This document shows, piece by piece, positions 1,765 to 58,722 of a stretch of 64,000 nt of DNA (position 1 is its first letter; every line of letters starts with the position of its first letter). The stretch spans positions 37,944,001 to 38,008,000 of the forward strand of contig NC_043007.1 of NCBI RefSeq assembly GCF_006345805.1. The letters are read 5' to 3'. The notes under the pieces were generated by a model. That model saw only the letters and a program-made list of their open reading frames with translations, made no database searches and was not told the DNA's origin. The position numbers and the translations under genes were made by a program. Source of the stretch: Octopus sinensis (taxonomy: Eukaryota).

Positions 1765-2300
1765 AATTAAATACAAAATGGGACAAGAACGCAAAACATT
1801 CAGACAACTAAGTGATACAAAAGGGGGCAACAAAACATCCAGATAGACAATACAAAAAAAAACACGGAAGGGTCATTCGAAGGCTTTTATCTTCAGTCAA
1901 GAACTGGATCATCCTCACAATTTCAGCTGATTAATCTTGAGATTGCTCCAATCTGGCCAGCCCCAAGGAAAAACTAAGCTAAGAGCATTAGATTCCTTGG
2001 AAAAAAGCAACGAATGTATACAAAACAAGGACGGAAAAACAGACGATATTACACAAATACAAATATAAAATACAATAAAAAAAATAATAATAATAATAAT
2101 AATAATAACAGGACATAACAACAGGCGTCTTTTGACTGGGGACGAATTGAACTTTATAGAAAAACAAAGACAAAGAGAGGTGTGGGAACAACAAACAAGT
2201 GTATTAGTTTGACGCTTGGGAAAAATGGAAAAGCCTTTTATGTTTCGAGCCTACACTCCTCAACAGAAAGGAATAAGAGGAAATAAACAGAGAATGAAAA
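1765..2300 (-). mobile_element. Microsatellite-flanked non-autonomous element(s), probably Penelope-related terminal repeats
   Basis: 1765-1930 recurs at 19190-19347, also next to (TA)n. Ends with the hammerhead-like fold at 2234-2271. Confidence 0.5.
2234..2271 (-). ncRNA. Degenerate minimal type I hammerhead-like motif
   Basis: Minus strand CCTTT-CTGTTGA-G-GAGT/GTAG/GCTC-GAAA-CA-TA-AAAGG. Stems I and II pair. The core has U in place of A6 and stem III is broken. Confidence 0.5.
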
Positions 2301-2440
2301 AACATATTGAGCTACACACAGACACACAAATATATGCACACATATACATATGTGTGTATACACACACACACACACACAAATATGGTCAATGGTGATAGCA
2401 TGATAGCTATTATCAGATTTGTTAGAATGTCAGACTAATA

Positions 2441-3852
2441 GAAGGTGAAGTCAAAAGTTATCCGCACTTTTGCCATAACATATCTTTATTATAGTCACAC
2501 TGCCTTTTGTACATGTGCTTATAGTTGGTACTATTGTGGTCACATGATTGAAGTTTGAACCTGATCGCACCATTTTTCTTTCTGGCTTTACAGTGTAAAC
2601 ATGGCTGCTCTGCTAGCAATGTGCACCAAAGAAGAACAAAGAGCAGTGATCCAATTTCTCTGGTAGTAAGGTGTGTCAGGTGCTGAAAATTATTCACAAT
2701 GAGCCGTTTCCATAAAGTCTGTGCAAGACGGGTGCCAAGAGGACTTACTGCAGAGCACAAGTGCAAAGGTCTTGAATTTTGTCAATGTTTACTCGATCAC
2801 TACAACAATGAGGGTGAGGAATTTTCAAGCAGAACAGTCACAGGAGATGAAATGTGTGTTCATCATTATAGGCACAGGAGTGGCTGTGTGGTAAGTAGCT
2901 TGCTTACCAACCACATGGTTCCGGGTTCAGTCCCACTGCGTGGCACCTTGGGCAAGTGTCTTCTACTATAGCCTCGAGCCGACCAAAGCCTTGTGAGTGG
3001 ATCTGGTAGACAGAAACTGAAAGAAGCCCGTCGTATATATGTATATGTATATATATGTGTGTCTGTCCCCCAACATCGCCTGACAATCGATGCTGGTGTG
3101 TTTATGTCACCGTAACTTAGCAGTTCAGCAAAAGAGACCGATAGAATAAGTACTAGGCTTACAAAGAATAAGTCCTGGGGTTGATTTGCTCGACTAAAGG
3201 CGGTGCTCCAGCATGGCCGCAGTCAAATGACTGAAACAAGTAAAAGAGAGAAAAAAGAGACTAAAAGAGGCCGAATCCAAAAGACAAAATATGGAGTGAA
3301 AAAATCCTGGCTCGCCAGTGACAAATTCAGGACCCAGTCTTTCACAGGAAAGGTGATGCTAACCCTTTTGGGGGACTCAAAAGGGCTTATACTGGAAGAC
3401 TAACTGGAAAAGGAATGTATGATCAACAGTGCAAGATACAGTGCTTTGCTGGCCAACAAACAGAAGCCATTAATTTGTACCAAATGCCAAAGCCTGTTAT
3501 CAAAGAAAGTTTTGTTGTTGCATGACAATGCACACCCACTACACCCACACATGGCAGCCCAGTCTGTTGAAAGCATTAACCAATTGTGCTAAAAGCCTCC
3601 AATGTATTTCAGCACCTGGCACACTTTCCAACTAGAGAAATCAGATCACAGCTCTTTGTTCTTTAGTGCACATTGCTGGTGGAGTGGCCGTTCTTACACT
3701 ATAAAGTCAGAAAGAAAATTGGTGCAATCGGGCTCAAATTTCAATCACATAACGACAATAGTACCAAGTATAAGCACACATGCGCAAAAGGAGGTGTGAC
3801 AATAATAAAGATATGTCATGGCGAAAGTGTGAATAATTTTTGACTTCCTCTC
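2441..3852 (+). mobile_element. Decayed mariner (Tc1/mariner) DNA transposon interrupted by a SINE
   Basis: ~40-bp TIRs (gaagtcaaaagttatccgcactttt / aaagtgtgaataatttttgacttc). Transposase motifs KVCARRVPRGLT, VTGDEMCVHHY, GKVMLT and LLHDNAHP. Confidence 0.9.
2870..3250 (+). mobile_element. SINE family B (tRNA head, CORE-like ACCTTGGGCAAGT, internal (TA)n(TG)n) inserted in the mariner ORF
   Basis: High similarity to copies at ~4400-4750(-), 5755-6117(+), 19930-20318(-), 24309-24750(+) and others. Confidence 0.9.
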
Positions 3853-3928
3853 ATATATATATATTATATATATAATATAGTATATATATATATATATGTA
3901 TACACACACACACACACACACATATATA

Positions 3929-4284
3929 TCTCTTCTATAACGGCAGTTTGTCTGTTGCGTCTGTGTGTCTGTTTTCTCTACCCTCACCCTGACCACGGCT
4001 TTCAACCGATTCATGATGAAACTTGACACATAGCCCAATGTCATATTCAAAACACACAGCGAAAATTTTGAAAAGTTCCCCCAGTTCTGAAAAAATCGAT
4101 AAATCGACATGGGGTCGAGAATCAGAAACCCAAACCATAGAGCGTCTAGGGGACGCAACTCCACCTTTTTTAACTCTGAAAAAATTTACCATCATTTTTT
4201 TTCTATTTTTTGGCTATAACTCTCTAAAAATGCTTTATAGTTATTTCCCTTACAAACCTGAGCAACGCCGGGCGATACTGCTAG
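3929..4284 (+). mobile_element. Non-autonomous Helitron
   Basis: A|TC start, subterminal hairpin CCTGAGCAACGCCGGG and CTAG|T end. The same 3' end occurs at 55545 and 61977. Confidence 0.8.
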
Positions 4285-4320
4285 TATTTATATATATGTA
4301 GGTCCCGGGTTGAGTCGGGG

Positions 4321-4353
<33 letters not shown>

Positions 4354-4399
4354 ACACATATACAGATATATCATATATATATATCTCTTTTTCTCTTTT

Positions 4400-4747
4400 T
4401 TCTCTTTTACTTGTTTCAGTCATCTGACCGCAGCCATGCTGGAGCACCGCCTTTAATCGAGCAAATCGACCCCGGGACTTATTCTTTTGTAAGCCTAGTA
4501 CTTATTCTATCAGCCTCTTTTGCCAAACCGCTAAGTAACAGGGACATAAACACACACGCATATATATATATATATATACATATATATGATGGGCTTCTTT
4601 CAGTTTCCGTCTACCAAATCCACTCACAAGGCTTTGGTCGGCCTGAGGCTATAGTAGAAGACACTTGCCCAAAGTTCCACACGCAGTGGCACTGAACCCG
4701 GAACCATGTGGTTGGTAAACAAGCTACTTACCACACAGCCACTCCTG

Positions 4748-4750
<3 letters not shown>
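4400..4750 (-). mobile_element. SINE family B
   Basis: Reverse complement of 2870-3250. Confidence 0.85.
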
Positions 4751-4778
<28 letters not shown>

Positions 4779-5208
4779 ACATACATACATACATACATAC
4801 ACACACACACATTGCCATGTATGTGTAATCTAGTGCCTTCAGCTTGCACCAACTGCATTTTTACATTTCGTGACTTTTGGCCCAGCTTATACTTAAATAC
4901 AGTGTGTGTGTGTGTAAATATCAAAATTGTCATGGCTGGAGGTGTGTCCAACTAAGATTATTTATGGATAATGTTTACTTATTCTTCCTAACATAAATAA
5001 CCATAACATCAACACATATATACACATACAGAAAATTACACACACTCACTGACACAAATTCACCTTAGGTCATGTTATGTTAGTCAGAGAGGTGGGGTTT
5101 AGGCAGGCAAACAAGAAGTGTGAAATCTCAGGCATTACAAACAAAATTATGGTGGGAAACTGAAGACGCTGATGTGAAATAGATGAACTATTACAGTAAA
5201 TTGCAAAC

Positions 5209-5244
<36 letters not shown>

Positions 5245-5754
5245 TGTATATTTTAACTTGTACTGGTTTCAGTCATTGGACTGCAGCCATACTGAGGAAC
5301 TGCCTTAAAGGATTTATTGAACAAATCAACCCCAGTGCTTTTTTTTTATGGCTGATGCTTATTCTGATAGTCCCTTTTGCTAAACTGCTAAGTTTCAACG
5401 GACATAAACATACCAATATTAGTAGTCAGGTAGTCATGGGGGCACAAACGCACATGCATGCACACACACACACAACAATATTTTTTTTTCAGTTTGCATC
5501 TAGCAATTCCTTTCACAAAGCTTTGGTCAACTTGAGACTATAGCAGAATATACTCGCTTACGGTACCACATAATGGGACAACTCAAAATTATGTGGTTGG
5601 GAAGTAAAACTTCTTACAACACAACCACACTAGTACCTATATATCTTATTTAGCAGCAAAGTGTCGTCAGTGATTAGAGGGTCAAGGGTTTTGTGCACTG
5701 CACTTGCCAGACTAATTCATATGCAATTCTGGGCCTTTGATTTATTATTTAGGT

Positions 5755-5854
5755 AACCTTGGGCAGGTGTCTTCTACTATAGCCTCAGGCCAACCAAAGC
5801 CTTGTGAGTGGATTTGGTAGATGGAAACTGAAAGAAGCCCGTCGTATGTATGTG

Positions 5855-5910
<56 letters not shown>

Positions 5911-6117
5911 ATGTGTATATGTTTCTGTGTTTGTCCCCCTAACATCGCTTGACAACCAATGCTGGTGTGTTTATGTCCCCGTAACTTAGCAGTTCGGCAA
6001 AAGACACCAATAGAATAAGTACTAGGCTTATAAAGAATAAGTCCTGGGGTCGATGTGCTCGACTAAAGGCGGTGCTCCAGCATGGCCATAGCCAAATGAC
6101 TGAAAAGAGTAAAAGAG
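5755..6117 (+). mobile_element. SINE family B, 5'-truncated
   Basis: Matches family B from ACCTTGGGCA to the GACTGAAA tail. Confidence 0.85.
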
Positions 6118-6119
6118 TA

Positions 6120-6546
6120 TATGTGCAAAGGGTAGACCAGAGAAGACATGGGACGAAATGGAGAGGAAGGATCTTTGGACACTGGGCCTCACTGTGGAAA
6201 TGACAAGGGACCGGGAGATGTGGTGATTTGCTGTACTTGATAAGACATGTCAAGCTAAGTAAAATTTCTGTCTTCCACATATACAGGCCAGTCCTTTCAG
6301 GTGCTGGTGCCACATAAAAAGCACCCATGCCAGTGCTGCATAAATGTACCCATGCCAATGCTGCATTAATGCACATGTACTGGTGGTACATAAAAAGCAG
6401 CCAGCACAATGTTAAGTGGTTGGTGTTAGCCATAGAAATCCTGGCACAACAGACAATAGGAATCTGGACAGCTCCCAGCTGGCCAGCACCATGTCAAACT
6501 TTCCAACCCATGCCAGCATGGAAAGCAAACGTTAAATGATGATGAT
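6120..6546 (+). mobile_element. RTE-clade LINE 3' end with (ATG)n tail
   Basis: KGRPEKTWDEMERKDL..LGL..DREMW motif. The 3' UTR is shared with 24762-24948(-) and 34490-34724. Ends in GTTAAATGATGATGAT. Confidence 0.75.
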
Positions 6547-6823
6547 TTAACATTTGTTTTCTATGCTGGCAAGAATTGGGCAAGATGGACTGATGAAACA
6601 GAGGACTGCAATGAGCTCCAATGTCTGCTTTTGGCATAGTCTCTGCAGCTGGATGTCCTTCTTAATGCCAAACACTTAATAGAGTGCACAGGATTCATTT
6701 TTCATGACAATGACACAGCTGAGGTCACCAAGTAACACACAAGGCAAGGACCCTTATATGAGTGAGGATATAGAAATTGAGGTAAGCGAAATATGATAAT
6801 GGGGCAGGAATAAAGATGTCTTA

Positions 6824-7052
6824 TTAACTCTTTCGTTACTGTATTTATTTTGAGATGCTCTGTGTTTCTTTCAATTATTTTAAATATAACAAAGAATTTA
6901 GTTTAATAATTTGGTTATCATTAAGCTAGTGTTAGGAACATAAATCGTGACTAAGGTCTGTTGGAAGATTTTAATTAAAAACTTATGAAAATGAGACATT
7001 TGTACTACAGAGCCAGAGCCGGTTTCAGCCGGGTTGGTATCAAAAGGGTTAA
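6824..7052. mobile_element. TTAA-flanked piggyBac-like MITE
   Basis: TTAA-CTCTTT...AAAGGG-TTAA. Second copy at 23749-23970. Confidence 0.75.
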
Positions 7053-7545
7053 AGAGGAGATACATGGTTTTCCTAGCTAGAGAGAGAGTGATGGGAAGGC
7101 ATACCCTCAAGGTGCATGGTTAATATAAGAATGAAAATAGGGACAAAGGAACAGAGAGGGTGAGTAGATAATTCTAAGAGAGTGTGAAAAGAGTGTGACA
7201 AATGGTTAGAGAAGAGGACTGAGGTGGACATAGTGAACAAAGCACACAGGTAGAGGCATGGTCAAAGTGAATATCAATTTCCAAGGAAGCAAAGGAAATA
7301 GGAGCGGGTCTGGGAAGAGGTGATAAGGGACAGTAATGAGGAGATGATGATGATGATATATATACACACCACACACACATACATACATACTGTCAGTAAA
7401 TCATAAATCTGGAAGAGAAGCATACTCTAAGTTATAGAGCAGTAGAGTATTTTGAAAAAGATAGTTATGGCCAGTTCATAGGGTTAGCCAGGATTTCGCA
7501 TCCATAAAATGCTTAGCTTTACATATGTCTCATCAAAAATTAATG

Positions 7546-7763
7546 GCTGGCTGGCTGGCTGGCTGGCTGCTGGCTGGCGGGAGGGCGGGCTGCGGGCGGG
7601 CGGGCGGGCGGGCGGCGGGCGGGCGGCGGGGGGCGGGCAGACAGACAGACAGACAGGACAGACAGACAGACAGATATACAGATAGATAGATAGATAGATA
7701 TAGATAGATAGATAGATAGACGATAGAGTACAGATAGATAGATAGATAGATAGATAGATATAC

Positions 7764-7796
<33 letters not shown>

Positions 7797-7827
7797 TACA
7801 GATAGATATACAGATAGATAGATATAC

Positions 7828-7864
<37 letters not shown>

Positions 7865-7865
7865 C

Positions 7866-7910
<45 letters not shown>

Positions 7911-7937
7911 CAGATAGATAGATAGATAGATAGATAG

Positions 7938-7990
<53 letters not shown>

Positions 7991-8093
7991 TATAGATAGA
8001 TAGATAGATATACAGATAGATAGATAGATATACAGATAGATAGATAGATATACAGATAGATAGATAGATATACAGATAGATAGATAGATATAC

Positions 8094-8143
<50 letters not shown>

Positions 8144-8151
8144 ATAGATAC

Positions 8152-8208
<57 letters not shown>

Positions 8209-10550: not shown

Positions 10551-10586
<36 letters not shown>

Positions 10587-11408: not shown

Positions 11409-11449
<41 letters not shown>

Positions 11450-12542: not shown

Positions 12543-12583
<41 letters not shown>

Positions 12584-14464: not shown

Positions 14465-14466
14465 AT

Positions 14467-19156: not shown

Positions 19157-19194
<38 letters not shown>

Positions 19195-19406
19195 CAAAAA
19201 TGGGACAAGAACACAAAACATCCAGTTAGATGATACAAAAAAGGGGCAACAAAACATCCAGACAGACGATACAAAGAAAACAAGGACGGGTCATTTGGAG
19301 TTTTCTATCCTCAGTCGAGTTCCATATTATCTTTGCAATTTCGGCTGCACACACACACATACACATCCATATTTACATACATGCATGTACTACACATATA
19401 CATTAA

Positions 19407-25130: not shown

Positions 25131-25621
25131 GTAAATTCTATTTGCATCTGTATGCATGCATATGCATTACTTTACTCTAAATGGATAAATTAATACATCA
25201 TAAACATATCACAACAACTATGTAAGGTATTTGACGATATTTAACTTATTTGTTTATAAACTGGGCTGGTCCAACAGCTGTCCGGTACACACATGCACAG
25301 ATACAGGATTAGTGACAGAAAAAAAAAGACTACATATGTGTAAGTGTGTATTATGTTCTAACTCATGTAAAGCATGTGTGTAATGAACACAAATATAGCT
25401 ATATGTGGGCGTGTGTATGTACATCAACTAAATGTTGTTCTGATAGCACGACAGACTGTGTGAAAAAAATGTACAAAAACTGACGAAATCTACAAGTGAT
25501 ACATCAGAGATTTATTCCATATCAATCACACTTTTGTTTTTTTTTTCTTTTTAGATCTCAAATTAGTGTTCAATTAGGAATAACATTTATCATCCTTTTA
25601 TACATATATATACACCTGTGC

Positions 25622-25655
<34 letters not shown>

Positions 25656-25701
25656 GTGCACACACACACACACATGTGCACACACACACACACACATATA
25701 T

Positions 25702-26522
25702 ATAGTGTAATAAATAAAATATATGCATACATACAAACATATATGTACGTACCGACATCTACATGTATATATACATGCATATATAAATATATATACGTAC
25801 AGGACACCACAAGAAGACGTAAAAATCAACAGAAACGAAAACGGAAAAGCCATTTTGTTACAAAAGAAGGACAGAGACGTGGAACAAGACGAAAACGAAA
25901 TGGGAAAAACAATTATGTACAGCAGAAAAACGAAGTACAGGACATGCTGCACAAGGAAAAATCCCCTTCATCAGCTGTCGCTAGCAGACATAGCGTGTTT
26001 CGAAGGCAAGACAGAACACGTCTGGTCATGCTAGGCCTTCCTACGAGAGAATTAAAATAAAATACCCTCATAGAGGGGTAAAACGAGCAATTGTGCAGTT
26101 CTTTGTTACGTCCCTTTTTGTGTTACATTTTTTTGCTCGTTTTACCCCTCTACGAGGTTATCTTATTTTAATTCTCTCATAGGAAGGCCTAGCATGACCA
26201 AACGTGTTCTGTCTTGCCTTCGAAACACGCTATGTCTGCTAGCGACAGCTGATGAAGGGGATTTTTCCTTGTGCAGCATGTCCTGTACTTCGTTTTTCTG
26301 CTGTACATAATTGTTTTTCCCGTTTTCGTTTTCGTCTTGTTCCACGTCTCTGTCCTTCTGTTGTAACAAAATGGCTTTTCCGTTTTCGTTTCTGTTGATT
26401 TTTACGTCTTCTTGTGGTGTCCTGTACGTATATATATTTATATATGCATGTATATATACATGTAGATGTCGGTACGTACATATATGTTTGTATGTATGCA
26501 TATATTTTATTTATTACACTAT
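25702..26522. repeat. Near-perfect ~390-bp inverted repeat with a ~42-nt spacer
   Basis: 25702-26090 versus 26133-26522. The mirror ORFs in the track (25723+ and 26501-) confirm near identity. Confidence 0.95.
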
Positions 26523-27904: not shown

Positions 27905-27936
<32 letters not shown>

Positions 27937-27940
<4 letters not shown>

Positions 27941-28356
27941 AAAGATAAATGCGATACAATAAAATTAATTATAATCGCCGGTGTACCAGTACACGCCATA
28001 TATTATACATATATCATTACATTCAAGGCGAAGAGTGTACTAGATACACAATAGCTGGATAAATTTAGTGAGATGAGAATTAAAAACTTTTACAAACTTA
28101 ACTTTTCTTATACTGCAGTTTCGCCAAATTCAGTAATAAAAATAGTATTTATTTACTCAGGCTGGCTCTTCAGTAAGATTCCTGTTAATGATGGAAAGAC
28201 CATACCAATAGATCCATGTGCGTCTATCGAAATGCTCTTTCTAAACTATTCAAAACACTGCGCAGACTCCGAACAAACCCGACAAAATAGGGGATTGTGG
28301 TATATCGTCTAACGGTCAGAAATTTATCGAGAGAATATGTAAACAAAGATAAACAA

Positions 28357-28360
<4 letters not shown>
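27937..28360 (-). mobile_element. Short hammerhead-bearing element inserted in (TA)n (Penelope-like terminal repeat or retrozyme-like)
   Basis: Flanked by (TA)n on both sides, AAACAAAGATA repeated at both ends, contains the HHR at 28106-28178. Confidence 0.65.
28106..28178 (-). ncRNA. Type I hammerhead ribozyme
   Basis: TCTTA-CTGAAGA-GCCA..TGGC-GAAA-CTGCAG-TA-TAAGA. Complete core, G10.1-C11.1 pair, palindromic stem III, GUA cleavage triplet. Confidence 0.85.
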
Positions 28361-28388
<28 letters not shown>

Positions 28389-28692: not shown

Positions 28693-28823
28693 TTTTATAT
28701 ATATATTATATTTTGTGAAATTTGATTTAGTATTTCTAAACTGAATTTTTCCCTGTAAGTTAGGAATAATATTCCCTCAAATAATTTTTATTTTTAATTT
28801 ATATATTTCTTCACTTTTTTGAT

Positions 28824-28827
<4 letters not shown>

Positions 28828-28883
<56 letters not shown>

Positions 28884-29368
28884 GGTAGGTAGAGTTATAC
28901 GTATGTGCATGTGTATATGTATATGTATGTGTATGTATGTACATATATGTGTGTGTGTGTGTATGTGTGTATATGTATGTATATATGTATATATGTGTGT
29001 ATGTGTAGGTGTGGGTATATATATGTGTGTGTGTGTGTATGTATATGTATATATATGTGTGTGTATATATGTATATGTATATATATGTGTGTGTATATAT
29101 GTATATATATATATATATGTGTGTATATATATGTGAATATGTGTGTGCATATGTGTATGTGTGTATATATATGTATGTATATATATATATATATATGTAT
29201 GTATATATATATATATGTGTGTAAGTGTGTGTATATATGTATATGTAAGTGTGTATGAGTATGTATGTATGTTTGCACACATGTATGTGTGTATATATAT
29301 ATATATATATAATATATATATATATGTGTATATATATATATGTGTATGTATGTGTGTATGTATATGTA

Positions 29369-29401
<33 letters not shown>

Positions 29402-29461
29402 ATATGTATATGTATGTATATGTATGTGTGTATGTATATGTGTATATATGTATATATATAT

Positions 29462-29497
<36 letters not shown>

Positions 29498-29511
29498 ATA
29501 TATATATATAT

Positions 29512-29551
<40 letters not shown>

Positions 29552-29586
29552 ATGTGTGTGTATGTAGATGTATGTGTGTATGTGTG

Positions 29587-29627
<41 letters not shown>

Positions 29628-29782
29628 TATATATGTGTATGTATATGTATGTATGTATATATGTGTGTGTATGTGTATGTGTATATGTACATATACGTGT
29701 ACGCTCGTGTGTTTAGGTATATGTAGGTACGTAGAGTTATGTATGTGTGTATGTATATGTACATATGTGTAAGTATGTGTAT

Positions 29783-29839
<57 letters not shown>

Positions 29840-30357
29840 AAGTTTATATGTATGTATCCGTCTGTATAATAGGTAACTGCACGTATATATACTTAATATT
29901 TATTATTTATTATTTATTATTTATTTTTTGAGTATGCATGTATGAATAACTGCACGTATATATATTTTATTACTTATTTTTTGAGTATGCATGTAAGTAT
30001 GAACATAAGGAGTGGCGTGTGTGTGTGTGTGTATGTGTAAGCATAGATATATGTATACTTTTACGCATGTGTGTACTTATGTGTATATATGGATGCGCGT
30101 GTGTGTGTGTGTGTATGGGTACGCATGTATATGTGTATGTGCGTGTATGTGTATATGTGTATGTATGTGTGTGTGTATATATGTATATGTATGTATGTAT
30201 ATGTATGTATGTGTATATATATATATATATATATGTAGGTCCCGGGTTGATTCGGGGTTAACCACAGTAAATAAGGTACTCAATACAAAGCAGAGTAAAA
30301 TTAATTTATTATATAGAAGGAGCTTCTACAGGACTAGAACTGTTTCATTCAAGAGAA

Positions 30358-30402
<45 letters not shown>

Positions 30403-31278
30403 ATGTGTATGTGTATGTATTTGTATGTGTATGCATGCGCGTATATGTATGTATATGTATACGTGTGGGTGTGTGTATGTGTGTATATATGTATGTATGT
30501 ATGGGTGTATGTATGTATGTATGCGGATATGTATATATATGTGTATATATATATATATATGTGTGTGTATGTGTATATATGTGTATATATATATATGTAT
30601 GTATGTATTTGTATGTAGGTGTATATGTATGTGTGTATATATATTTATTGGTGTATACGTACAGACTAGTCTTCTAAGATTGTAGACATGAATCTGTAGG
30701 TACGCGTATGTATGTGTATATACGTGTATGTATCTAGATGTATGTATGTATGAATATAACGCGTGCGTGCATGTGTATGAGTGTACGAATGAGTGAGTGT
30801 GCGTGCTAATGAGTGTGCGTGCGTGAGTGAGTGCTTGTGCTCAAGTAGAAAGATAAAAGGGACTAGCTGTCGTAGCCAAGATGCTTGTGACCAGCCGAAG
30901 ATAACAAAAGTAATAAATGAAGATAATAAAATTAAAATTAGGGAATGGGTTTGTATTTGTATGTATATATGTATGTATGTGTAGGTATGAATAGGTACAC
31001 ATATGTATGTATATATATATATATATGTATATATGTATATATACATATATGTGTATATGTATATATGAGTATATAGGGACTTGTGTGTTGTGTGTGCATG
31101 TGTGTATGTGGATTTGTGTGTGTATGTGTGTATGTGTATGTATGTATATATTTTTTTGTGTGTATGTGTATGTGTGGTCGTGTGTGTGTATATATACATG
31201 TGTGTGTGTATATGTATATGCATGTATGTGTGTATGTATATATATATATATATATATATGTAGATATATGTACGTATA

Positions 31279-31315
<37 letters not shown>

Positions 31316-31385
31316 GGGTGTGTGTGTATGTATGTGTGTATGTATATGTGTGTGTGTGTGTGCATATATGTATACATATGTGTAT
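28828..31385. repeat. ~2.5 kb degenerate (TA)n/(TG)n/(TATG)n microsatellite field with short unique islands
   Basis: Directly visible; source of many spurious ORFs. Confidence 0.95.
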
Positions 31386-31607
31386 AGGTATAAGTGAGAA
31401 TTTCCTTATTTACCTAAAACTCTATTCTTCTATATATATATTTTTTTTTTATTCTTTTATTTATTCTTCTATCTAATTTACCACTGACTCCTTGACCACT
31501 CCCCCAAGTATGATTTTTTTGCGCTATGCCTACCCCCAAAAAGTCCCCCACCACCACCCCTATAAACCTGCCTAAATGTATAAATGCCAATACAATTCTT
31601 GTTAACT

Positions 31608-31658
31608 AGCTTCCTGAAGATTTCTCTTGAATGAAACAGTTCTAGTCCTGTAGAAGCT
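31608..31658 (+). ncRNA. Type I hammerhead ribozyme
   Basis: AGCTTC-CTGAAGA-tTTC/TCTT/GAAt-GAAA-CAG/TTCTAGTC/CTG-TA-GAAGCT. 6-bp stem I, GUA triplet; the first pair of stem II is a U-U mismatch. Confidence 0.8.
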
Positions 31659-33659
31659 CCTTCTATATAATAAAATATATATATATATATATATAGTTAA
31701 TCCAAAAAAGTGAAGAAAAAACAACAATGCAAGGATGTGGTACATGCAAAGTTTTAGCAGATGCTCAGGGAAAGAAAGACGTACATTTCGAGCAAAGCAA
31801 GCAATGCACCCCGGCATAGCCCGGGTGCTATGACCTACAGCCAAATTGTATCTGTTCCTTATGGGCAGAATTGGCAAATGAGGAGTATGAAGGAAACAAT
31901 TTCTTTATAGACATGTATTTCAGTAATTTTCTGATGAACAAAACTGCAGTTTCCATCAGTCAGAAGTCTGTGATTGGCCTAGGGCTATAGTAGAAAACAC
32001 TTGCCCAAGGTACCATGCAGAAGGACTGAATTTGGAACCATGTGGTTGGGAAACAAACTTCTTAACCACACAGTCATTCTTGCACCTAATATATGTGTGT
32101 GTGTGTGTTTATGTATGTTTACATTTGTTGTTAAATTGAGTATTGTGTCCCACTATGTCCAAAGTTAGTAGTTCATCAAGCAGAGATGATAACTGCCAGA
32201 TTGAAATACATACTGAAGTCAGTATGAACAATTAAATTTTTGAAGGCAAGACCCATCATGGCAGCAGTCAAACGATTAAGCCCAGTAAAATAATGTTTAA
32301 AGACAATGGCTTCAAATTTAAGGAAATGGATTACTAAACACAAGATAATGAGTTCAAAACTTCATATTGAACTTCCACTCTATAAGATAACACTATAGGT
32401 ACTTCCAACAATTAACAATTGTAATTTGAAGTTAAGTGGTTAACAGTAAGAAAGATGTTCAGATTTCTTAAAAAAATTATTGTGTAAAATATTCTGAGAA
32501 AAAGTTTTTCACCACAACAAACACAAACACACACACACACACAGTGTCTCTGTGGTAACTTGAGCTACTACAAACAGCAGCCAAATCTCTCTTAAAACAC
32601 ACCCTTTCATCAAACGAAAGACATAGATTTACAGTATTTCAGGAAGAAAAAAAAGAAAACTGTGAAGGGTCAACTCTAGGCTAAACAAAACACTGGCAAA
32701 CATACTTCACATTAAAAGATTATCTACTAAATAATACTAATAAAGTTGACGGTATATCTTCGAAGTTTCATTCCCTGGAAAAACTCAATGTATTTGAAGA
32801 TTGTTCTGGCAGAGTTGCCACCTTTAGCTAAAGACTTCAAAATTGTGCAACTCAACCTCGTTTTTGAGGTTACTTTTGTAGTAAAAAGTGTTGTGCAAAC
32901 TCAACCAACTAAATGCAGCAACTAAATTTTCATTAAATGCCACCCAGCAACCTTAAAAAAAATGACTTGGAGTGGGGAGAACATCTTGAATACTATAGTA
33001 CTTGAAAATAACGCAAAGCGGTCATTGCTGGAATACCTTTGATGACAGATTTCACTGATCAAGGCTGACTTAGGGTAAAACAACAACAAACAAATTTGGT
33101 TTCCACATACACACACATCTGTATTTATGTTTCTGTGCATGATTTTACAGAGATAAGTACATATGTAGCATGTGTTTACAGAGATAAACACACACACACA
33201 TACACACACACAAATACACACATAGGGTGTGTGGGGAGTGCTATGGTTTTTTGCATGGTTATTAAAATATTTAGAAGGGTGGAGTCTAAACAGCCATGTG
33301 TTACACACATGGTTCTCAGTAAAAGCATTTTAATATATAATATTCAATATAAAGGATGCTATTAACAACTGGAAATACACACACACAATGAAGATGTGTG
33401 CACATGTGTGTAACAACATGACAATTACATTACAGCATTACAGTACATATATGTGTGTGTGTACTCAAGGAACCACCATGTGTGTATGTATATGTGTGTG
33501 TGTGTGTGTTTGTACATACATAAAAATGATGAGCTTAACAATGTTTGAGAATGTACTCAAAGAACTAGCACATGTGTGTGTGTGTGTGAGTGTGTGTGTG
33601 AGTGTGTGTGCGTAAAAATATAAAAGTTATAATATATATATATAGTATATTTATGTATC

Positions 33660-35390: not shown

Positions 35391-36811
35391 GTAACTGTCA
35401 GATTAGGAAAGAACCTCTTAGTCTTGACAAACTTGCTAATGCTGGTGCTATGATAAATGTATTCAGTACATTCTGTAAAGTGATTGGTGTCAAAATAGGC
35501 ATTCAGCTGTAGAACATAAACCAAAATTAAACATTAGACATTGTCCCCTAGACCCATTTAGGAAAGCAGTAACTCCAAATAAAATCTGACTCAAACAGCG
35601 ATGAACTGTTCAACCTATGCCAGCATGGAAAGTGGACATGAAGTGATGGCAATGATTATGACATAAATACTATATACAGTTGATTCTTAAACATTTGTAA
35701 TTATGTATTTTTGTAAGAGTCTTCATGTGCCTTGCTTTCACCAGTGTAGACAATTTGAAACATTATGTTTTTTACTCTATGTATTGCTGTTTTGTTCAAA
35801 TCTGCACTTGCAGATACTAGAGTGTTACCCATCATATAGCAGGTAAGTATAGAAGTATATTTTTGTCACCGAGGGTAACATCAGGAGATATGATATACAT
35901 GCAATAATTATAATTTAACTTTTATCGAATTTCTTGGAATTTATACAGACTGATGAAATGAAGTTTCAAATGAAAAATATTTATTATCCTAAAATAAAAT
36001 TAAATAAAACAAATTCCTCATTTTTATATTTGCAATAAATATATGTAGTTACTTTTCTAAATTTTATCAAGGCACAAGCTTAGCTGTGTGGTAAGAAGCT
36101 TGCTTCCCAAATACATGGTCCTGGGTTTAGTCCCACTACATGGCACCTTAAGCAAGTGTCTTCTATTATAGAAAGCCTTGTGAGTAGATTTGGTAGACAG
36201 AAACTGAAAGAAGCCCATTGTATGTATGCATACATGTCTTTGATAGAATAAGTACTAGGCTTAAAAAAGTAAGTCCTGGGGTTGATTTGTCTGAATTAAA
36301 CCCTTCAAGGTGACACTCCAGCATGGCCGCAGTCAAATGACTGAAAGAGCAAAAGAATAATCACAATCTACTCCTTTGAAAACTAAACTCTGCAAAATTT
36401 CATAACAGAATCTGTATTTTTCAGAAATTTATATATTTGGCACCTCTTTTGTTAATTCTATCTGTTTCTCTCTTCTGATCTCTGTAAAATGTAAATTGTG
36501 AGTGGAAAAAAAAATCCAAACAGACAACCATTCTATCAGCTATTATTATATAAGGCACAAATGTGGCTATGCAAAAAGAAGTCTGCTCTCTGACCACATG
36601 GTCCCAGATTCAGTTCCACTGTGTGGCATGTTAGGCAACTGTCTTCTACTATAAACTGTAGACCAACCAAAGCCTTGTGAGTGGATTTGATAGACGGAAA
36701 CTGAAAGAAGCCCATTTTGTGTGTGTGAGTGTATGTGTGTGTGTGTGTGTGTGTGTATGTGTGTGTGTGTTTGTGTTGTGTGTGTGTTTGTGTGTGTGTG
36801 TGTGTGGGTGT

Positions 36812-40627: not shown

Positions 40628-41239
40628 GGATCTTTACCTTTTGACCTACAGATTTTAAAAATAATTTTTTTAACTAAAGACTTTCAAACTTCGGACACTG
40701 GTAGAAGATGTCATATAAAATATCTTTCACTCTTAGCATTTTTGAGAAAAAACTAATATTTACGAAGTTATTTCACGTTAAAGTTCTCGTATTTCGGTAA
40801 TTTCAACCAATCAATGACGTGTATTCAGCTAAATAAAATTACTGCTGTTGTTTGTCAACAACAACTATCGGCGGTGTATATTTCGTTTGTCACTGTTATT
40901 TATGACAACCCTAACCCTAAAACCCTAACTTTAAAACCAGTACAAACGCACGAACGATGTCATAAATAACAGCGACAAACGAAAAATACACCACCGATAG
41001 TTGTTGCTGACAAAAAACGACAGTAATTATATTCAGCTGAATACACGTCATTGATTGGTTGAAATTACCGAAATACGAGAACTTTAACGTGAATAACTTC
41101 CTAAATATAAGCTTTTCTCAATATCGCTAAGAGTAAAAAGATGCTTTATATGATGACATTCTACCAGTGCCCGAAGTTTGAAAGTGTTTAGTTACAAAAA
41201 AATCATTTTTTAAATCTGTAGGTCAAAAGGTAAAGATCC
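40628..41239. mobile_element. Foldback MITE with ~280-bp TIRs and a CCCTAA-repeat centre
   Basis: GGATCTTTACC...GGTAAAGATCC ends, 8-bp TSD tttctttc/tttctttt. Second copy at 56120-56777. Confidence 0.9.
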
Positions 41240-48969: not shown

Positions 48970-49031
<62 letters not shown>

Positions 49032-51945: not shown

Positions 51946-53270
51946 GAGATAGAAAGACAAATAGACAAAGTTAAAATAGAGAGAGTGGGAAAGAGAAAGA
52001 AACAGTGACAGATTGACAGAAAGAGATATAGAGAGTGAAAGAAACACAGGGTGACAGAAATAGATGTGAACAGAGAGGGAAAGAGACAGGGTGTAAGTGA
52101 AAGAGACAGTGGGGAATGACGGAAAGTGATATAAAGAGAAGAAAAGAGATACAAGGTGACAGAAATAGATATAAACAGAGAGAGGAAAAGATTGAGAGTG
52201 ACAGTAATATAGAGATAGGTAGTTAGGTAAGTAACATATGAAGGGGAGGTAGACCGGCTGACTGGCTGGCGTTTATGTGTTAATTTAACGTGTAAAAAAC
52301 CACGGACATGAAGGACTTATTGCCTATCTGTCTGACTGACTGTAAGTGGAGAGGAGGGTGAAGATAGAAAACAGATAGAAGAGAAGATAAAATAAAATAT
52401 AAAAAAGCCGAGTGAGGTGAAGGGCGGAAATGAGGCAGTTGGATAAAGAGAGAGAGAGAAGGCTAAAGATAAGAGGAGCAGAAAAAAAAAAGAAAGAAAA
52501 GAAGGACTAAGGAGAAAATTAGATAGAGAGAGAAAAAAAGAAAGAGTGGTAGGAAAAAGACGAAAGGATATGTGGCCGTAAAAGAAAAGAGAGAGAGCTA
52601 GTTGAAATAGAAAAAGCAAAAAAGATATAGACGGACGGGAAACAGGGAAAAGATAAAGAATGCGGAGAGAAAAAAAGTAGTGAGGGGCTGAAAAATAGAG
52701 ATGGAGGGATACTGGAGGAAAGAAAATGGTGTACGGAGTTAAGAAAAGAAATAAAAGATACAGAGGGAAAAGAAAAGGGATGAGGGAAAGAGAAAGAAAA
52801 GATAAAATACAAAATGCTAGAGTGGGAGTAAGACGAGAGAGAAGCAGTTAGAGAGAAAGAAAGAGGAAACGGAGAGAAAATGGAAAACTGAAATTAAGGG
52901 GAAAAATGTGAAGATAGAAAAGTGGGAGAATATGGTGGAGAATAGGCGAAGCGATATATGGTTAGAAAGAGAAATTGGCAGAATGGAAAATGAAGTAAGT
53001 AAAAGGAAAAGGAAAAACAAAAACACGGAAAGAAAAGAGACAGAAAGATAAAGGGAAATAAAATGGAGTAAAGGAGTGAACTAAAGAGACAGGAGGTTGG
53101 AGATGGATTTAAAAGGGAGTGAGTGGGGAAGGCAAGAGACGGAAGGATAGAGAAAGGGGAAAAAAATACAGAGTAAAGATAAAGAATGGTGAGAAGATGG
53201 ACGGAAGATTAGAGAAAAGAGAAGAGAACAGTAAGAAGGGTGAAAGGCTATGCGAAACAAAAAAAATGAT
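51945..53270. repeat. Long purine-rich (GA/AAG) low-complexity tract
   Basis: Strong purine strand bias. Similar tracts occur at 57050-57740 and 63700-64000. Confidence 0.85.
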
Positions 53271-53876
53271 AATAATAAATGATTGGGGAAATGGGGATAA
53301 ATTATGGTTTTTAACAGACACAAGGCAACAATTAATAGAGAAGAGGTTAGTTGATTAAATCGCCCTCGGTACGACCCCGGAAGACGGAAAGGCAAAGTTG
53401 ACCTTGATGGGAACTGAACCCGGAACGAAAAGGAACAAAAAAAATAAAGAGGAGAAATATTGGTTTCAAATTTTGCACAAGGTCAGCAGTTTCGGGGGAG
53501 AGGGTAAGTTGATTAAATCGATCCCAGTGCTCGACTGGTACTTACTCTATCGACCCCGGAAGGATGAAAGGCAAAGATGACCGCGGCGGAATTTGAACTG
53601 AGAAGGTAAAGACGGACGAAATGCCGCTAAGCATTTTGTCCGGCACGCTAACTATTCTGACGGTTCGCTGCCCTAACAAGGTTAAAAGTTACAAAAAATA
53701 ACCAAAAAAAAAAGAACGGGTGAAGGAAGACAGAAGGAGGGATGAGGATAGAAAAGAAGTAGAAAGAGAGAAATAGCGAAGAGAGGCGAAACAGAAAGGA
53801 GATAAGGAAACGAGATGTGGTGAGATAGAAAGAGACGACGAATATCAAGACTGAAAGTTTAAAAGATGATATGGAA

Positions 53877-54255
53877 GCACTCCGTCGGTTACGACGACGA
53901 GGGTTCCGGTTGATCCGAATCAACGGAACAGCCTACTCGTGAAATTAACGTGTAAGTGGCTGAGCACTCCACAGACACGTGTACCCTTAACGTAGTTCTC
54001 GGGGATATTCAGTGTGACACAGAGAGTGACAAGGCCGGTCCTTTGAAATACAGGTACAACAGAAACAGGAAGTAAGAGTGAGAGAAAGTTGTGGTGAAAG
54101 AGTACAGCAGGGATCACCACCATCCCCTGCCAGAGCCTCGTGGAGCTTTATGTGTTTTCGCTCAATAAACACTCACAACGCCCGGTCTGAGAATCGAAAC
54201 CGCGATCCTATGACCGCGAGTCCGCTGCCCTAACCACTGGGCCATTGCGCCTCCA
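53877..54255 (-). mobile_element. SINE family A, full length
   Basis: tRNA-like head with A/B boxes, CpGs intact, matches 500-795. Confidence 0.9.
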
Positions 54256-55167
54256 CGAACGATGATATAAGGAAGAGAAGGATATAGGTAGGGACGGAGG
54301 GAGAAAAAAAAGATGGAAATGAGAAAGAAATAAGATAGAGAGAAAGAAGATTGATGGGTGATAAAAAGGTGGTTAAATTCAGAGAACGGTAACAGATGAA
54401 GAGGACAGCAAGGATAAGATTGACTGATCTGTACGAAAGCCGAGAAAAATATTCTTTTCTACTCTATGCACAATGCCCGAAATTTTGGGGGAAGTGTGCC
54501 AGTCGATTAGATCGACCCTAGTTCGCAACTGGTACTTAATTTATCGACCCCGAAAGGATGAAAGGCAAAGTCGACCTCGGCGGAATTTGAACTCAGAACG
54601 TAAAGCAGAAAAAATATTGTAATAAAGAAGCTGACATGAGAGAGAGAGAGAGCGGGGAAGAGGAAGAGAAACAAAGATAAACTGCTTGATTGGGCCTTCA
54701 TTAGTTTTCTCTGTTTCCATTTTAAGGAAGATATTTTTTAAGGTCTGACAAAAAGCGAATGGAAGAGCAAGAGCACAAAGGAAAGATAAAGAAGAGTATG
54801 GAACAAACTTAGGGAATAAAAATATAGAGAAAAATGGTACGATATATTGCAAACGGAAAAGGAGTTCTGCCTGTCGTTTACGGGCTCATGAAACCGAAAC
54901 TTAATTCAGATATTCAGGGCGCTTTTGGCTGAGAGAAGAATACACCCTATGTTGCAGAGTTAACCACTAGGTGCTCCTGATGAAACCCCCGGTACTCATT
55001 TTTAGTTGAGTGGACTGGGACATTATGATATGGAGTGCCTTACACTAGGACACAAAGCACTGCCCAACCCAAGGATCGATATCACGACCTAACGTTCCTG
55101 AGCCGAACACTCTAACCACTTCGTGGTCATTCCAGAAGTTTTCAAACTGTCTTAAATCATTGTAATC

Positions 55168-55545
55168 AAGCTGAAGTTGTCTGTGTGTGGCAGGTTTCGA
55201 AGCCTTCAACTAACACTATCTCCTCCGAGACCCTGCGGCGCAAGTTGACCAAATTTGAGAGTATGATAGAAGAAGGCTTGCTCTTCATTCCGTAGAAGAT
55301 AAAATTCAAATCGGACCATGATAACACAAAAGATTATTTACATCAAAAAGGTGCTTTTTTTCTATGAAAATCCCTATTTGTTACGATTTTTTTACTGCTG
55401 TGTCGCCATTTTTCGGTGTATTTCAACCAGAAAAATGTTCACTTAAAGAGAATAACAAGCTACATAATGGAAAATTTTTACTTTTCAAAAATTCCAATTC
55501 TAAATGGGCGAAACAAACCCGAGCAACGCCGGGCAATACTGCTAG
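55168..55545 (+). mobile_element. Non-autonomous Helitron, 5' end clipped
   Basis: Close match to 61584-61977; hairpin plus CTAG|T end. Confidence 0.8.
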
Positions 55546-56119
55546 TTTTAATATATTATTACTATACATCTTATAAGCTGACCTGCCAACTTTTTTTTTT
55601 AATTCTAGATTGAAGGAGACGGCTATAATAAAACTTTGAATACGCCCTACTAAACACTATTTGTTACAGTTGACTAGTTTGTAGAATGCAGTCGGGTCGA
55701 CTGGAAGCTCGCTATACAATAAAGTTTCGTGTTAAACTGGGCAAAGCGCTACAGAAACTTGAACTGATGAGGGGCGTGGGAGGGAGAGCGTTACTGCACT
55801 TTGAACACATCTTACTTAATACTACTTGTCACAGCCTCCTTCATCTTCTCAGTGTCTTCAAAATGACTTCCTCTGGGGCTCTCCATCAGCTTTAGGAACA
55901 ACCAAAAGTCACAGAGAGCAAGGTCTGGACTGTCGGGAGGGTGAGGGACAGTTTTGATGTCCATCTCTGTCAAGTTGTTGGATTACTAGAATATCTGTCA
56001 CTGAGCACCCAGGGAACACACTTCGTACACATTTTACGCCTGTTCAGATCTTCGTGTATAATTCTGTGTACAGTTGCCAAATCAACTCCAAACTTATTGT
56101 ATTTATGGACACACAAGTC

Positions 56120-56777
56120 GGATCTTTACCGACAGATTTAAAAAATAATTTTTTGTAACTAATCACTTTGAAACTTCGGACACTAGTAGAATGTGTCATT
56201 TAAAATATCTTTTACTCTGAGCGTTTTTGAGAAAAGCTTATATTTACGAAGTTATTTCGCGTTAAAGTTGTCGTATTTCGGTAATTTCAACCAATCAATG
56301 ACGTGTATTCAGCTGAATAAAATTACTGCTGTTGTTTGTCAACAAGAACTTCCGGCGGTGTATATTTCATTTGTCACTGTTATTTATGACAACCCTAACC
56401 CTAAAACCCAAATCCTAAAACCCTAACCCTAAAACCCTAACCCTAAAACCCTAACCCTTAAACCTTAAAGCTAAAACCAGTACAAACGCACGAACGATGT
56501 CATAAATAACAGCGGTAAACGAAAACTACACCGCCGATAATTGTTGTTGACAAACAATGGTAGTAATTTTATTCAGCTGAATACACGTCATTGATTGGTT
56601 GAAATTACCGAAATACGACAACTTTAATGTGAAATAACTTCGTAAATACAAGATTTTCTCAAAAACGCTAAGAGTAAAAGATGTTTTATATGACACATTC
56701 TACCAGTATCCGAAGTTTGAAAGTGTTTAGTTACAAAAAATTATTTCTTAAATATGTCGGTCAAAAGGTAAAGATCC
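56120..56777. mobile_element. Foldback MITE with a CCCTAA-repeat centre, inserted in a mariner-like remnant
   Basis: Perfect 8-bp TSD CACAAGTC, long TIRs, central (AAAACCCTAACCCT)n. Confidence 0.9.
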
Positions 56778-57341
56778 CACAAGTCTTCATCTAGAAAATT
56801 GGGAGAACCACGACATTAAAAGTACCCAAGGGTTAGGTGGGGTGTTAGATTAAGTTTATCGACCAAAAATATTATCAGTCACTATTACGAGCTTCCACAC
56901 TGTTTCCATTTATCGAAATTTACTCATCGATCTTGGGTTGATTCGAAACTACGGCAGAAAACACTTGTCCAAGGTGTCACTCACTGTAGGGTTGAATTTG
57001 AAACTATGTAGTGGCGAAGCGAACTTCTTCACCACGGCACTCTTTGGAAGAAGAAATTGTAAAGAACAAGAGAAACATAAAAACAGAGATATAGAAAGTG
57101 GGGGTGGACAGAGAAAAGAATAAAAGAGATGGAAAGAGAAAAAGAAAGTGGAGAAGAGACAAATTAGAGAAATGAAGAGAAGAGAAAGACACACACACAC
57201 ACACACACACACAGATGATTCGAAAGAGAAGGAAAACAGAAATGTTGGAGAGATGGGGAGAAGAGGAAGAGGAAAAGAGAAAATAAAAAGAGATGAAAGA
57301 AAGAAAGAAAGGAAGGAAGGAAGGAAGGAAGGAAGGAAGAA

Positions 57342-57433
<92 letters not shown>

Positions 57434-58011
57434 AATTTAGAGAAAAAGAGGAAACATTAGAGAAGGAAGAATGAGGAGACGAAGCTTCAGGCCGGAAGTA
57501 GAAGAAGAAGAAGAGGTCGAAGACGGTAATGGAAGGGAATAAATACGAAAAGGGGGAGAAAGACGAAAAGAGAACGAGAACGAGGAAGAAATGAACGTAT
57601 AGGAAGAATACGCTTCAGAAGAAAGAGAAAGAGAGAATGAGATATGAAATAGAAGAAGGAAGAAAAGTAGGAGGGCAAGAAAAAAAAAAAAAACACTAAA
57701 AGTGTGTGAGGGTGAGAAAGTGAAAGGCTATAAATCAATAAAATGAAATAAAATAAATAGCCATGCGCCACTGGGGATATCTCAGTATGATCGCGTCTCT
57801 AGTTTGATTGCTTTTGTTACAGATGGTACACAATGTATTATGGAAGTTGAGGTATGTGTAAATGCAGCTGTGGTGGATTATATCGGTATGCGAGGGTATG
57901 AATGAAGAGTTGTTAACACTGGCCACCGAAACCTAAACAAACGCAACGGCCGTAAGTGTGTGTATGTGTGCGTATTTTCCTATATAACAGTTTCACGCCG
58001 AAGTGCATATA

Positions 58012-58047
<36 letters not shown>

Positions 58048-58053
<6 letters not shown>

Positions 58054-58218
58054 ATGATGATGGCCGTCCACTTGTGACCGAGGAAGACCATTGCCGACCT
58101 TCAGGAACATTGTGCGCTCTAGGACTAACTTATATTTTGCATTTGCGGCCCCGTTGGTGGCTAATGAGCCCTGCTCTTGACAAGCATACACGACTGCAAA
58201 CATTGCAGACCAAAACTA
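58048..58218 (-). mobile_element. RTE/BovB-like LINE extreme 3' end
   Basis: CNVCSRVCLSRAGLISHQR C-terminal motif and a (CAT)n tail. Confidence 0.75.
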
Positions 58219-58259
58219 TACGAGTTTTGAGAGAGCACGTATCCAGCATATATACATAC

Positions 58260-58307
<48 letters not shown>

Positions 58308-58555
58308 AAGGGTGAAATTAATTAATTTGGAATAATTATCAATTACACCAAGTAGATTTCGGCATATATATATATATATATATACATACATTGGCGTGAA
58401 GCTGTTATGAGATTTTGCGTCTTTGAAGAAGAAAACTCAGCTGCGAATATTCCGTGTATCGCGTCGTTGTCTAATTTCCCGTCCGATTAGTTTTCGTCTG
58501 CTCTGCTTTCGTCTAACTTTTCTCCTTGTATTCTTTCTGTTCAGCCCTTGATACA

Positions 58556-58600
<45 letters not shown>

Positions 58601-58680
58601 TTTTTTAATCAATGAAATTCCAACTTACTCTAATTTTCAGGTTTTATTATTTGCAATTTTTACTATTTTATGATATTGAA

Positions 58681-58722
58681 ATAAACTAGTACTTTCACGC
58701 ATTGCGTAATCATCAGGGTTAT
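58681..58722 (-). ncRNA. Minimal type I hammerhead ribozyme
   Basis: ATAACC-CTGATGA-tt-ACGC/AAT/GCGT-GAAA-GTAC-TA-GTTTAT. Palindromic stem III, CUA triplet, one mismatch in stem I. Confidence 0.75.

Follow-up and report, generated by a model that had tools for sequence, protein, structure and literature searches.

A young retrozyme family targeting (TA)n, probably copied from circular RNA, among truncated Penelope-like elements of Octopus sinensis

The hammerhead ribozymes of Penelope-like elements (PLEs), together with the idea of a circular template, were described by Cervera and de la Pena (2014, PMC4209133), and the subject has been reviewed (PMC6765202). The closest described systems are the metazoan non-LTR retrozymes (LTR, long terminal repeat), with units of 150–450 bp, for which a circular template and a PLE partner have been proposed (PMC7229834; bioRxiv 10.64898/2026.07.22.740005); a PLE origin of retrozymes was treated by Li, Clavereau and Pollet (2026) in 35 genomes, of vertebrates, three insects and one anthozoan (bioRxiv 10.64898/2026.07.22.740005). 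The Hydra clade of PLEs, (TA)n targeting and the octopus Hydra family Hydra-1_Obim were described by Craig et al. (2021, PMC8557442), as were non-autonomous Chlamys elements (MRC1), whose 3′ ends generally resemble the autonomous partner and whose clade is mostly without canonical hammerheads. The circular-template model for retrozymes and PLEs has been proposed but is unproven, and in the one study of a PLE in vitro cleavage was not needed. Here, we analyzed a window of 64,000 nucleotides of Octopus sinensis (contig NC_043007.1, positions 37,944,001–38,008,000), which holds four type I hammerheads, HH1 to HH4. The literature already covers retrozymes, hammerheads of PLEs and targeting of (TA)n, and HH2 belongs to an established type of element. 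In the reading that we favor, to which we give a probability of roughly 0.68, the three other hammerheads end truncated PLEs, and HH2 is a retrozyme copied from circular RNA into (TA)n by a borrowed PLE enzyme.

Like metazoan non-LTR retrozymes, HH2 forms non-coding tandem units of low G+C content with one type I hammerhead each, and PLEs coexist with it. Unlike the others, it is strict in its choice of (TA)n as target and has a single fixed 3′ end inside the unit, as well as a long helix II stem-loop, an 8-nt palindrome and a monomer that does not appear unusually self-paired, strong self-pairing being described as typical of these retrozymes; it differs from the non-autonomous Chlamys elements in its canonical hammerhead and in lacking similarity to the partners with which it was compared. 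In the available part of PMC7229834, nothing was found on octopus, microsatellites or target sites, and no array-haplotype analysis in the available parts of that paper or of bioRxiv 10.64898/2026.07.22.740005. A 2026 octopus repeat annotation counted recently active Penelope families, and no ribozyme passage was found in its accessible text (PMC13282606). A search of partly accessible literature, with Repbase, Dfam and Lunse et al. 2017 outside it, returned no description of the HH families or of array-haplotype evidence; Lunse et al. 2017 or the bioRxiv supplements may list these variants or families. What goes beyond a routine annotation is the clean array evidence on an open mechanism, together with fixed variants of the ribozyme core.

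The HH2 family and its tandem arrays

The original prediction had placed four type I hammerheads in the window, each with an NUA triplet, and all four were confirmed in position and strand (Table 1), the triplets being AUA in HH1, GUA in HH2 and HH3, and CUA in HH4. They belong to four different multi-copy repeat families: copy searches spanning the 2.7-Gb genome gave first-look candidates numbering 2,898 for HH1, 771 for HH2, 1,759 for HH3 and 565 for HH4, of which 40 each were scored. The HH2 hammerhead is canonical, with a 5-bp helix I, a 5-bp helix II bearing the long stem-loop and a minimum free energy of −15.4 kcal/mol; its helix III, the palindrome (duplex −13.1 kcal/mol), is predicted to pair between two neighboring units. 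The window copy is a single unit, preceded on its 5′ side by a short repeat of the junction sequence (28344–28358). The G+C content of the unit was 34% (136 of the 396 columns counted), and no coding capacity was found, the only frame being an antisense one of 85 aa, read from stop to stop. Pieces of PLE open reading frames (ORFs) occurred near three HH2 loci, on the opposite strand or with (TA)n in between.

An exact 22-nt core pattern of HH2 had 327 matches in the genome and the control none. Head-to-tail arrays of the 404-nt unit reached 11 full units plus a partial one, so that at least two consecutive units each carry a complete type I hammerhead, as the definition of Li et al. (2026) demands, and both size and G+C content lie within the retrozyme ranges (150–450 bp, below 45–50%). 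We read 66 loci, 42 of them from an unranked list (contigs C1–C4) and the rest from score-ranked matches. In 63 of the 66, the 3′ end lay at unit position 402–404 and was followed directly by (TA)n; of the three exceptions, one was cut by N, one ended inside the unit at a TA-like site, and one was an inverted pair. The junction read TTTATATAT or TTTACATAT in 54 of the 63, resembling the next bases of the unit itself. Proximity to a microsatellite is by itself weak evidence, as 40% of the window falls no more than 200 nt from one; an exact 3′ junction on (TA)n, with a background of 1.5%, is strong evidence. A target-site duplication was not discernible in (TA)n, and no empty-site allele was seen in four sequencing runs, a search that is uninformative beside repeats.

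Relative to the predicted cut, the 3′ end is situated 171 nt downstream and therefore marks an internal start site. The 5′ ends, on the other hand, were uniformly distributed over the unit (Kolmogorov–Smirnov p 0.29), with no pile-up at the cut site (3/62 versus 1.7 expected, p 0.24), and 213 pieces spanned that site. Among the 42 unranked loci, 33 were longer than one unit, and the survival per further 404 nt was roughly constant (68/108, ~63%), giving lengths that are approximately geometric. Units differed by 2.1 substitutions within arrays versus 8.7 between them (176 units), and of the 1,878 combinations of a locus with one of 42 diagnostic sites, 1,865 were uniform within the array (0.7% mosaic versus 26% when shuffled). 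There were 27 haplotypes in 55 loci, two of which accounted for 24 of the 55. Five single-locus variants (two in L139 and one each in L140, L148 and L166) were present in the last unit as well as in the 5′ partial and must therefore predate insertion, coming either from a template copied more than once or from an unsampled uniform source. Across the 37 positions of core and stems, the only array-wide change was an A>G in helix III that keeps a G.U pair, while the free position 7 and the cut-site base vary.

A sister family (L181–L205), with a unit of ~430 nt, is older and 74% identical to HH2 over 314 nt. It keeps the hammerhead core, and its helix II differs in sequence but still pairs; like PLEs, it also shows inverted pieces on the 5′ side and a choice of two 3′ ends, and no ORF was found within 1.5 kb in 25 loci. 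One sister-family copy stands directly behind the HH2 array of L130.

None of the sequencing runs that contain HH2 is on record as RNA. Three of four runs guessed to be RNA (from three studies) each gave one contig of 425–434 nt, closed on the 404-nt unit at a depth of 6–11; such contigs fit a circle, a tandem transcript or DNA alike and carry little weight.

Unit position 194 (window 28150) shows A>G array-wide on three or four haplotype backgrounds, and position 230 (window 28114) on two; the former lies in a UAA context and is paired in the circular fold. Either editing or recombination would explain these recurrent changes, and it is improbable that they are RNA edits written back into DNA. 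A general excess of A>G that would indicate RNA editing was not supported, with 10 A>G versus 5 T>C among array-wide sites (p 0.07) and 2 versus 2 among single-locus variants.

Copying mechanism, partner enzyme and rival explanations

The fixed 3′ end, the random 5′ ends, the approximately geometric lengths and the single haplotype per array favor rolling-circle copying. Hammerhead dimers would cut a tandem HH2 transcript, the palindromic helix III bringing neighboring units together, and ligation would close the monomer into a circle. Reverse transcription would then be primed by a GIY-YIG nick in (TA)n at the one internal site, which has a TA-like microhomology in the RNA, and the enzyme would run round the circle with a chance of ~63% of completing each further turn. 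This course of dimer cleavage, ligation and target-primed reverse transcription appears likely to us, and the borrowed enzyme was probably of the Hydra type. The fuller proposition, that the arrays record rolling-circle, target-primed reverse transcription in the genome, every insertion deriving clonally from a single circular ribozyme RNA on which a Hydra-type enzyme, still active today, starts at one internal site and primes on (TA)n, is more tentative and falls somewhat short of even odds. HH2 offers a clean test case, since the family is very young, its arrays keep the haplotypes of single molecules, its start site and target are defined, and an intact enzyme is available as candidate; if the reading is true, the intact partner ORFs in the same genome make tandem formation by retrozymes and PLEs directly testable.

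The candidate partner is a young Hydra-type PLE family (L231–L260), with 150 scored matches at 93–100% identity and intact 778-aa ORFs in L262:2201-4534 (+) and L263:1527-3860 (−). These ORFs have DKT and RWL (in L262), no CCHH and no linker cysteines; the last feature sets the family apart from the Hydra clade, as does the C at core position 4 of its hammerhead. That hammerhead is otherwise built like the one of HH2, with a long helix II region and an 8-nt palindrome, and the family abuts (TA)n. The likeness to HH2 is one of youth and target, not of sequence, and we put the partnership at about even odds. As a separate observation, L261:4520-4816 (−) shows an in-frame fusion of a Hydra-type ORF with a host coding piece, the fused piece being a K319L-like PKD domain (Pfam PF22352, E 1.4e-6), which suggests capture of a host mRNA by template switching.

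Several points weigh against copying from a circle by this enzyme. The circular monomer is no more stable than shuffled sequences (57% paired, z −0.34 versus 60 shuffles; linear, z −0.84), and the 66 loci are only part of the family. The 42 diagnostic sites behind the 0.7% mosaic figure were picked as array-wide variants, sequencing errors are among the unit-specific differences, and a few homogeneous source arrays could also explain the two dominant haplotypes. In units 3–4 of L128, roughly one unit's length carries the L144 haplotype markers, and L123 has paired variants four units apart, a pattern that suggests local duplication. Further, the Poseidon protein starts internally on unprocessed RNA, with hammerhead cleavage dispensable in vitro (PMC11167929), and a fixed 3′ end is therefore possible without a circle; only one of nine predicted Xenopus retrozyme dimers was cleaved in vitro, according to the available text of bioRxiv 2026.07.22.740005. 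HH2 shows no sequence similarity to the ends of the young Hydra-type family (30 loci) or to 24 Neptune-type loci, and Neptune-type ends also abut (TA)n.

The strongest alternative, which we consider unlikely, is that HH2 is an uncleaved linear multimer on which a PLE enzyme starts internally at any unit junction and copies several units, the source arrays having been expanded by unequal crossing-over and the hammerhead being a passenger from a pseudo-LTR (pLTR). The cleavage-independent initiation of Poseidon (PMC11167929) and the local amplification of pLTR-derived units discussed in the accessible text of bioRxiv 2026.07.22.740005 speak for it, as does L123, which looks locally duplicated, and the lack of a 5′-end pile-up at the cut fits an uncut template as well. 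Against this, 27 mostly array-wide haplotypes in 55 loci would need a repeated single-unit bottleneck, and none of 16 within-array mosaic sites recurs in another locus. Arrays of four to nine full units start from partials of 28–64 nt (L125, L127, L129 and L136), which are poor seeds for unequal exchange, and the ribozyme core has been kept between families that are 74% alike.

It is considerably less probable that the monomers stay linear and that the enzyme jumps end to end, mostly on the same molecule, with no covalent circle. The foreign-haplotype unit inside the array of L128 would be accounted for in this way, and the ORF–host fusion of L261 fits template switching, but stops are not enriched at the cut site, the array-wide variants include no junction scar, and free intermolecular jumps would mix haplotypes far above the 0.7% observed.

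Truncated Penelope-like elements around HH1, HH3 and HH4

In the reading favored here, the window copies of HH1, HH3 and HH4 are ordinary 5′-truncated PLE insertions, and those of HH1 and HH4 are likely inactive. The features of all four loci are collected in Table 1.

Table 1. Hammerheads, host elements and associated repeats in the window
Feature	Position	Strand	Remark
Decayed Neptune-type PLE reverse transcriptase piece (end of reverse transcriptase, start of thumb)	10..225	+	One stop codon
Second decayed PLE ORF piece (thumb/linker)	1494..1670	+	tblastn E 7.8e-7
HH1 stub from a Neptune-type PLE family (3′ terminal repeat, pLTR)	2147..2311	-	
HH1 minimal hammerhead	2234..2271	-	Predicted cut between 2239 and 2238
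(TA)n tract at HH2 3′ junction, target site	27909..27937	.	
HH2 unit, one complete 404-nt copy	27940..28343	-	Young non-LTR retrozyme family
HH2 type I hammerhead	28106..28178	-	Descriptor and fold; cut predicted at 28111/28110, corresponding to unit position 233/234
(TA)n tract on HH2 5′ side	28359..28387	.	
5′-truncated Hydra-type PLE with microsatellite-rich 3′ untranslated region and terminal repeat	28872..31672	+	Collinearity with L174 and L175
Inverted copy of the HH3 element 3′ end with 66-nt tail	30237..30357	-	Only the 3′ half of the hammerhead
HH3 type I hammerhead	31608..31658	+	6-bp helix I; U.U plus 3-bp helix II; 4-bp helix III; predicted cut between 31652 and 31653
HH4 stub from an old Neptune-like PLE family (3′ terminal repeat)	58605..58741	-	
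HH4 hammerhead, palindromic helix III	58681..58722	-	Predicted cut between 58687 and 58686

Five segments and the end of the HH3 element are collinear with the ORF-bearing loci L174 and L175 at 87–99% identity. Longer copies of the family contain reverse transcriptase (RT), a CxCx5C linker, GIY-YIG and an inverted terminal repeat on the 5′ side. In L174, the CxCx5C linker and the CxxC and CxH motifs were all found, and GIY-YIG lacked the cysteine pair between VY and YIG, as in Hydra elements, which are without CCHH; the N-terminal part (DKT and RWK region) was not recovered in L175 or L176. These motifs, together with a visual likeness to the published alignment, point to the Hydra clade, whose described members share the linker, the GIY-YIG core without the cysteine pair, CxxC and CxH, and also the hammerhead, flanking (TA)n, 5′ copies in inverted orientation and a tail that is not always present (PMC8557442). 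The HH3 hammerhead differs from the one listed there for Hydra-1_oBim, and the 3′ untranslated region (UTR) of its element, at ~3.4 kb and mostly microsatellite, exceeds the Hydra elements, which are generally under 3 kb (PMC8557442). About 70% of this UTR is dinucleotide-like repeat, and, because window positions 28872–31672 are collinear with the 3′ UTRs of L174 and L175, the 2.8-kb microsatellite field beside HH3 is cargo of the Hydra-type element. The idea that the elements target or seed microsatellites had been raised for all four islands; targeting of (TA)n was borne out for HH2, and seeding for the HH3 3′ UTR, so that PLEs of the octopus genome both target and carry microsatellites.

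The ends of the HH3 family were compared at 29 loci (L032–L060), where 19 ends have the tail and 12 stop short of it; in the core of 29 relatives, position 7 was the only one to differ in more than one copy. The two flanks of the window element begin alike, in inverted orientation (28806–28830 and 31696–31720). Long ORF pieces with helicase-like motifs, which look Helitron-like, adjoin HH3-family insertions in L176:216-2981 and L177:5350-7498.

The HH1 stub is 84–91% identical to the 39 other copies scored of its 2,898 candidates. Its hammerhead has a 4-bp helix II, an extra base after position 9, and U instead of the canonical A at core position 6; its helix III palindrome has decayed from CG to CA. 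A 30-nt pattern of the family had 12,974 genome matches, and in the first 100 of these position 6 was U in 99, while position 7 was T in 51, A in 22, C in 16 and G in 11. As position 7 takes all four letters beside a constant U, the register is fixed and the U is a family-wide core variant. A natural A6C variant of low activity has been described, as has tolerance of a U.U opening of helix II (PMC3088659), with which HH3 and HH4 both start; A6U in a hammerhead context was not found in our search of partly accessible literature, which left out Lunse et al. 2017. The genome thus holds two fixed core variants, U at position 6 in ~13,000 copies and C at position 4 in the young Hydra-type family, and standard hammerhead descriptors would miss an HH1-type family of more than 12,000 copies.

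In 16 of 24 loci an HH1-like end lies downstream of a Neptune-type ORF that has the same orientation, and 12 loci show the hammerhead motif cleanly; at 72–81% identity to the window HH1, these ORF-linked ends therefore represent a sister subfamily. L220 and L212 have a DKG motif, a CX2-5CxxC linker, GIY-YIG with a cysteine pair and a hammerhead in the 3′ pLTR, and Pfam recognized RVT_1 (E 5.3e-7) and GIY-YIG (E 0.01) in the Neptune-type ORF of the HH1 family. As for HH4, decayed RT and GIY-YIG pieces lie upstream in 7 of 20 loci (L292, L296, L297, L302, L303, L306 and L309), and ORF piece and HH4 end stand together on the same strand in L292, L297 and L303, so that RT thumb, cysteine linker and GIY-YIG precede the hammerhead end. 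The window copy of HH4 has a helix I mismatch, with C where 27 of 29 relatives have A. The C-terminal GIY-YIG with its cysteine pair and the CX2-5CxxC linker liken both families to Neptune PLEs (PMC4209133; Craig et al. 2021), a label that for HH4 is suggested by motifs alone; both also share with Neptune pLTR hammerheads the extra base between positions 9 and 10.1, the palindromic helix III and the great copy number. The HH1 family is unlike them in the U at the normally invariant position 6. An ORF beside HH4 in L068 and L178 was rejected as its partner, as it belongs to another family with its own end.

A decayed Penelope-like RT had been proposed at window positions 1–1690 as a possible donor in trans. 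The remnant is real: positions 10–225 match the natural ORF of L224 with 49% identity (tblastn, E 1.8e-10), and the piece at 1494–1670 has best genome relatives that are only 39–50% identical. Pfam returned nothing for either piece, and tblastn with natural relatives was needed. The pieces lie ~1.2 kb apart with other sequence between them. Being broken, interrupted and antisense to HH1, the remnant is not a functional donor, and it is not the ORF that HH1 would have in the usual arrangement.

The original prediction regarded the four islands as separate non-autonomous mini-element families sharing one RT in trans, which we now consider very improbable. Most HH1, HH3 and HH4 copies are indeed short and without ORFs, but longer copies are collinear with RT and GIY-YIG coding sequence; short copies are the product of 5′ truncation, and no head-to-tail monomer arrays of these three were seen in the loci read. 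The Penelope relationship of the motifs was upheld. Joining to PLE ORFs was seen for HH1, HH3 and HH4 and not for HH2, which leaves HH2 as the non-autonomous one, and the several cassettes shrink to one retrozyme family and its sister among ordinary PLE stubs.

Motif statistics and other observations in the window

With a lenient descriptor, three exact-core matches were found in the window, whereas 60 local dinucleotide shuffles gave 0.23 on average and never more than 1; with a second, stricter one, there were two versus 0.03 (100 shuffles), both descriptors having been composed after the motifs were seen. The expectation that the motifs would outnumber shuffled matches thus held. The second descriptor also gave four matches with a score of at least 5 (HH1, HH2, HH3 and 36386–36424) versus 0.34 in the 100 shuffles, and it misses HH4; HH2 alone passed a strict descriptor. 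Rfam, which had been suggested as a check, found no match in the window at the gathering score and no hammerhead among the matches listed (150 of 217) at E ≤ 10. Only HH2 folded better than shuffled sequence (z −2.74; the others 0.10, −0.97 and −1.28). That the motifs are chance matches in AT-rich DNA, as the Rfam result and the folds of three of the four might suggest, is next to impossible in view of the shuffle controls, the hundreds to thousands of copies and the concentration of variation at the free position 7.

The match at 36386–36424 (−) is a fifth hammerhead-like sequence with one core deviation and may be due to chance. Several islands are present twice in the window, beside or near (TA)n (1735–1929 and 19159–19347; 58403–58501 and 59578–59677; and 25584–26510), and are possibly the ends of other elements. 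Telomere-like short interstitial arrays of AACCCT/AACCCTAA were also observed at 40907–40938 and 56391–56478.

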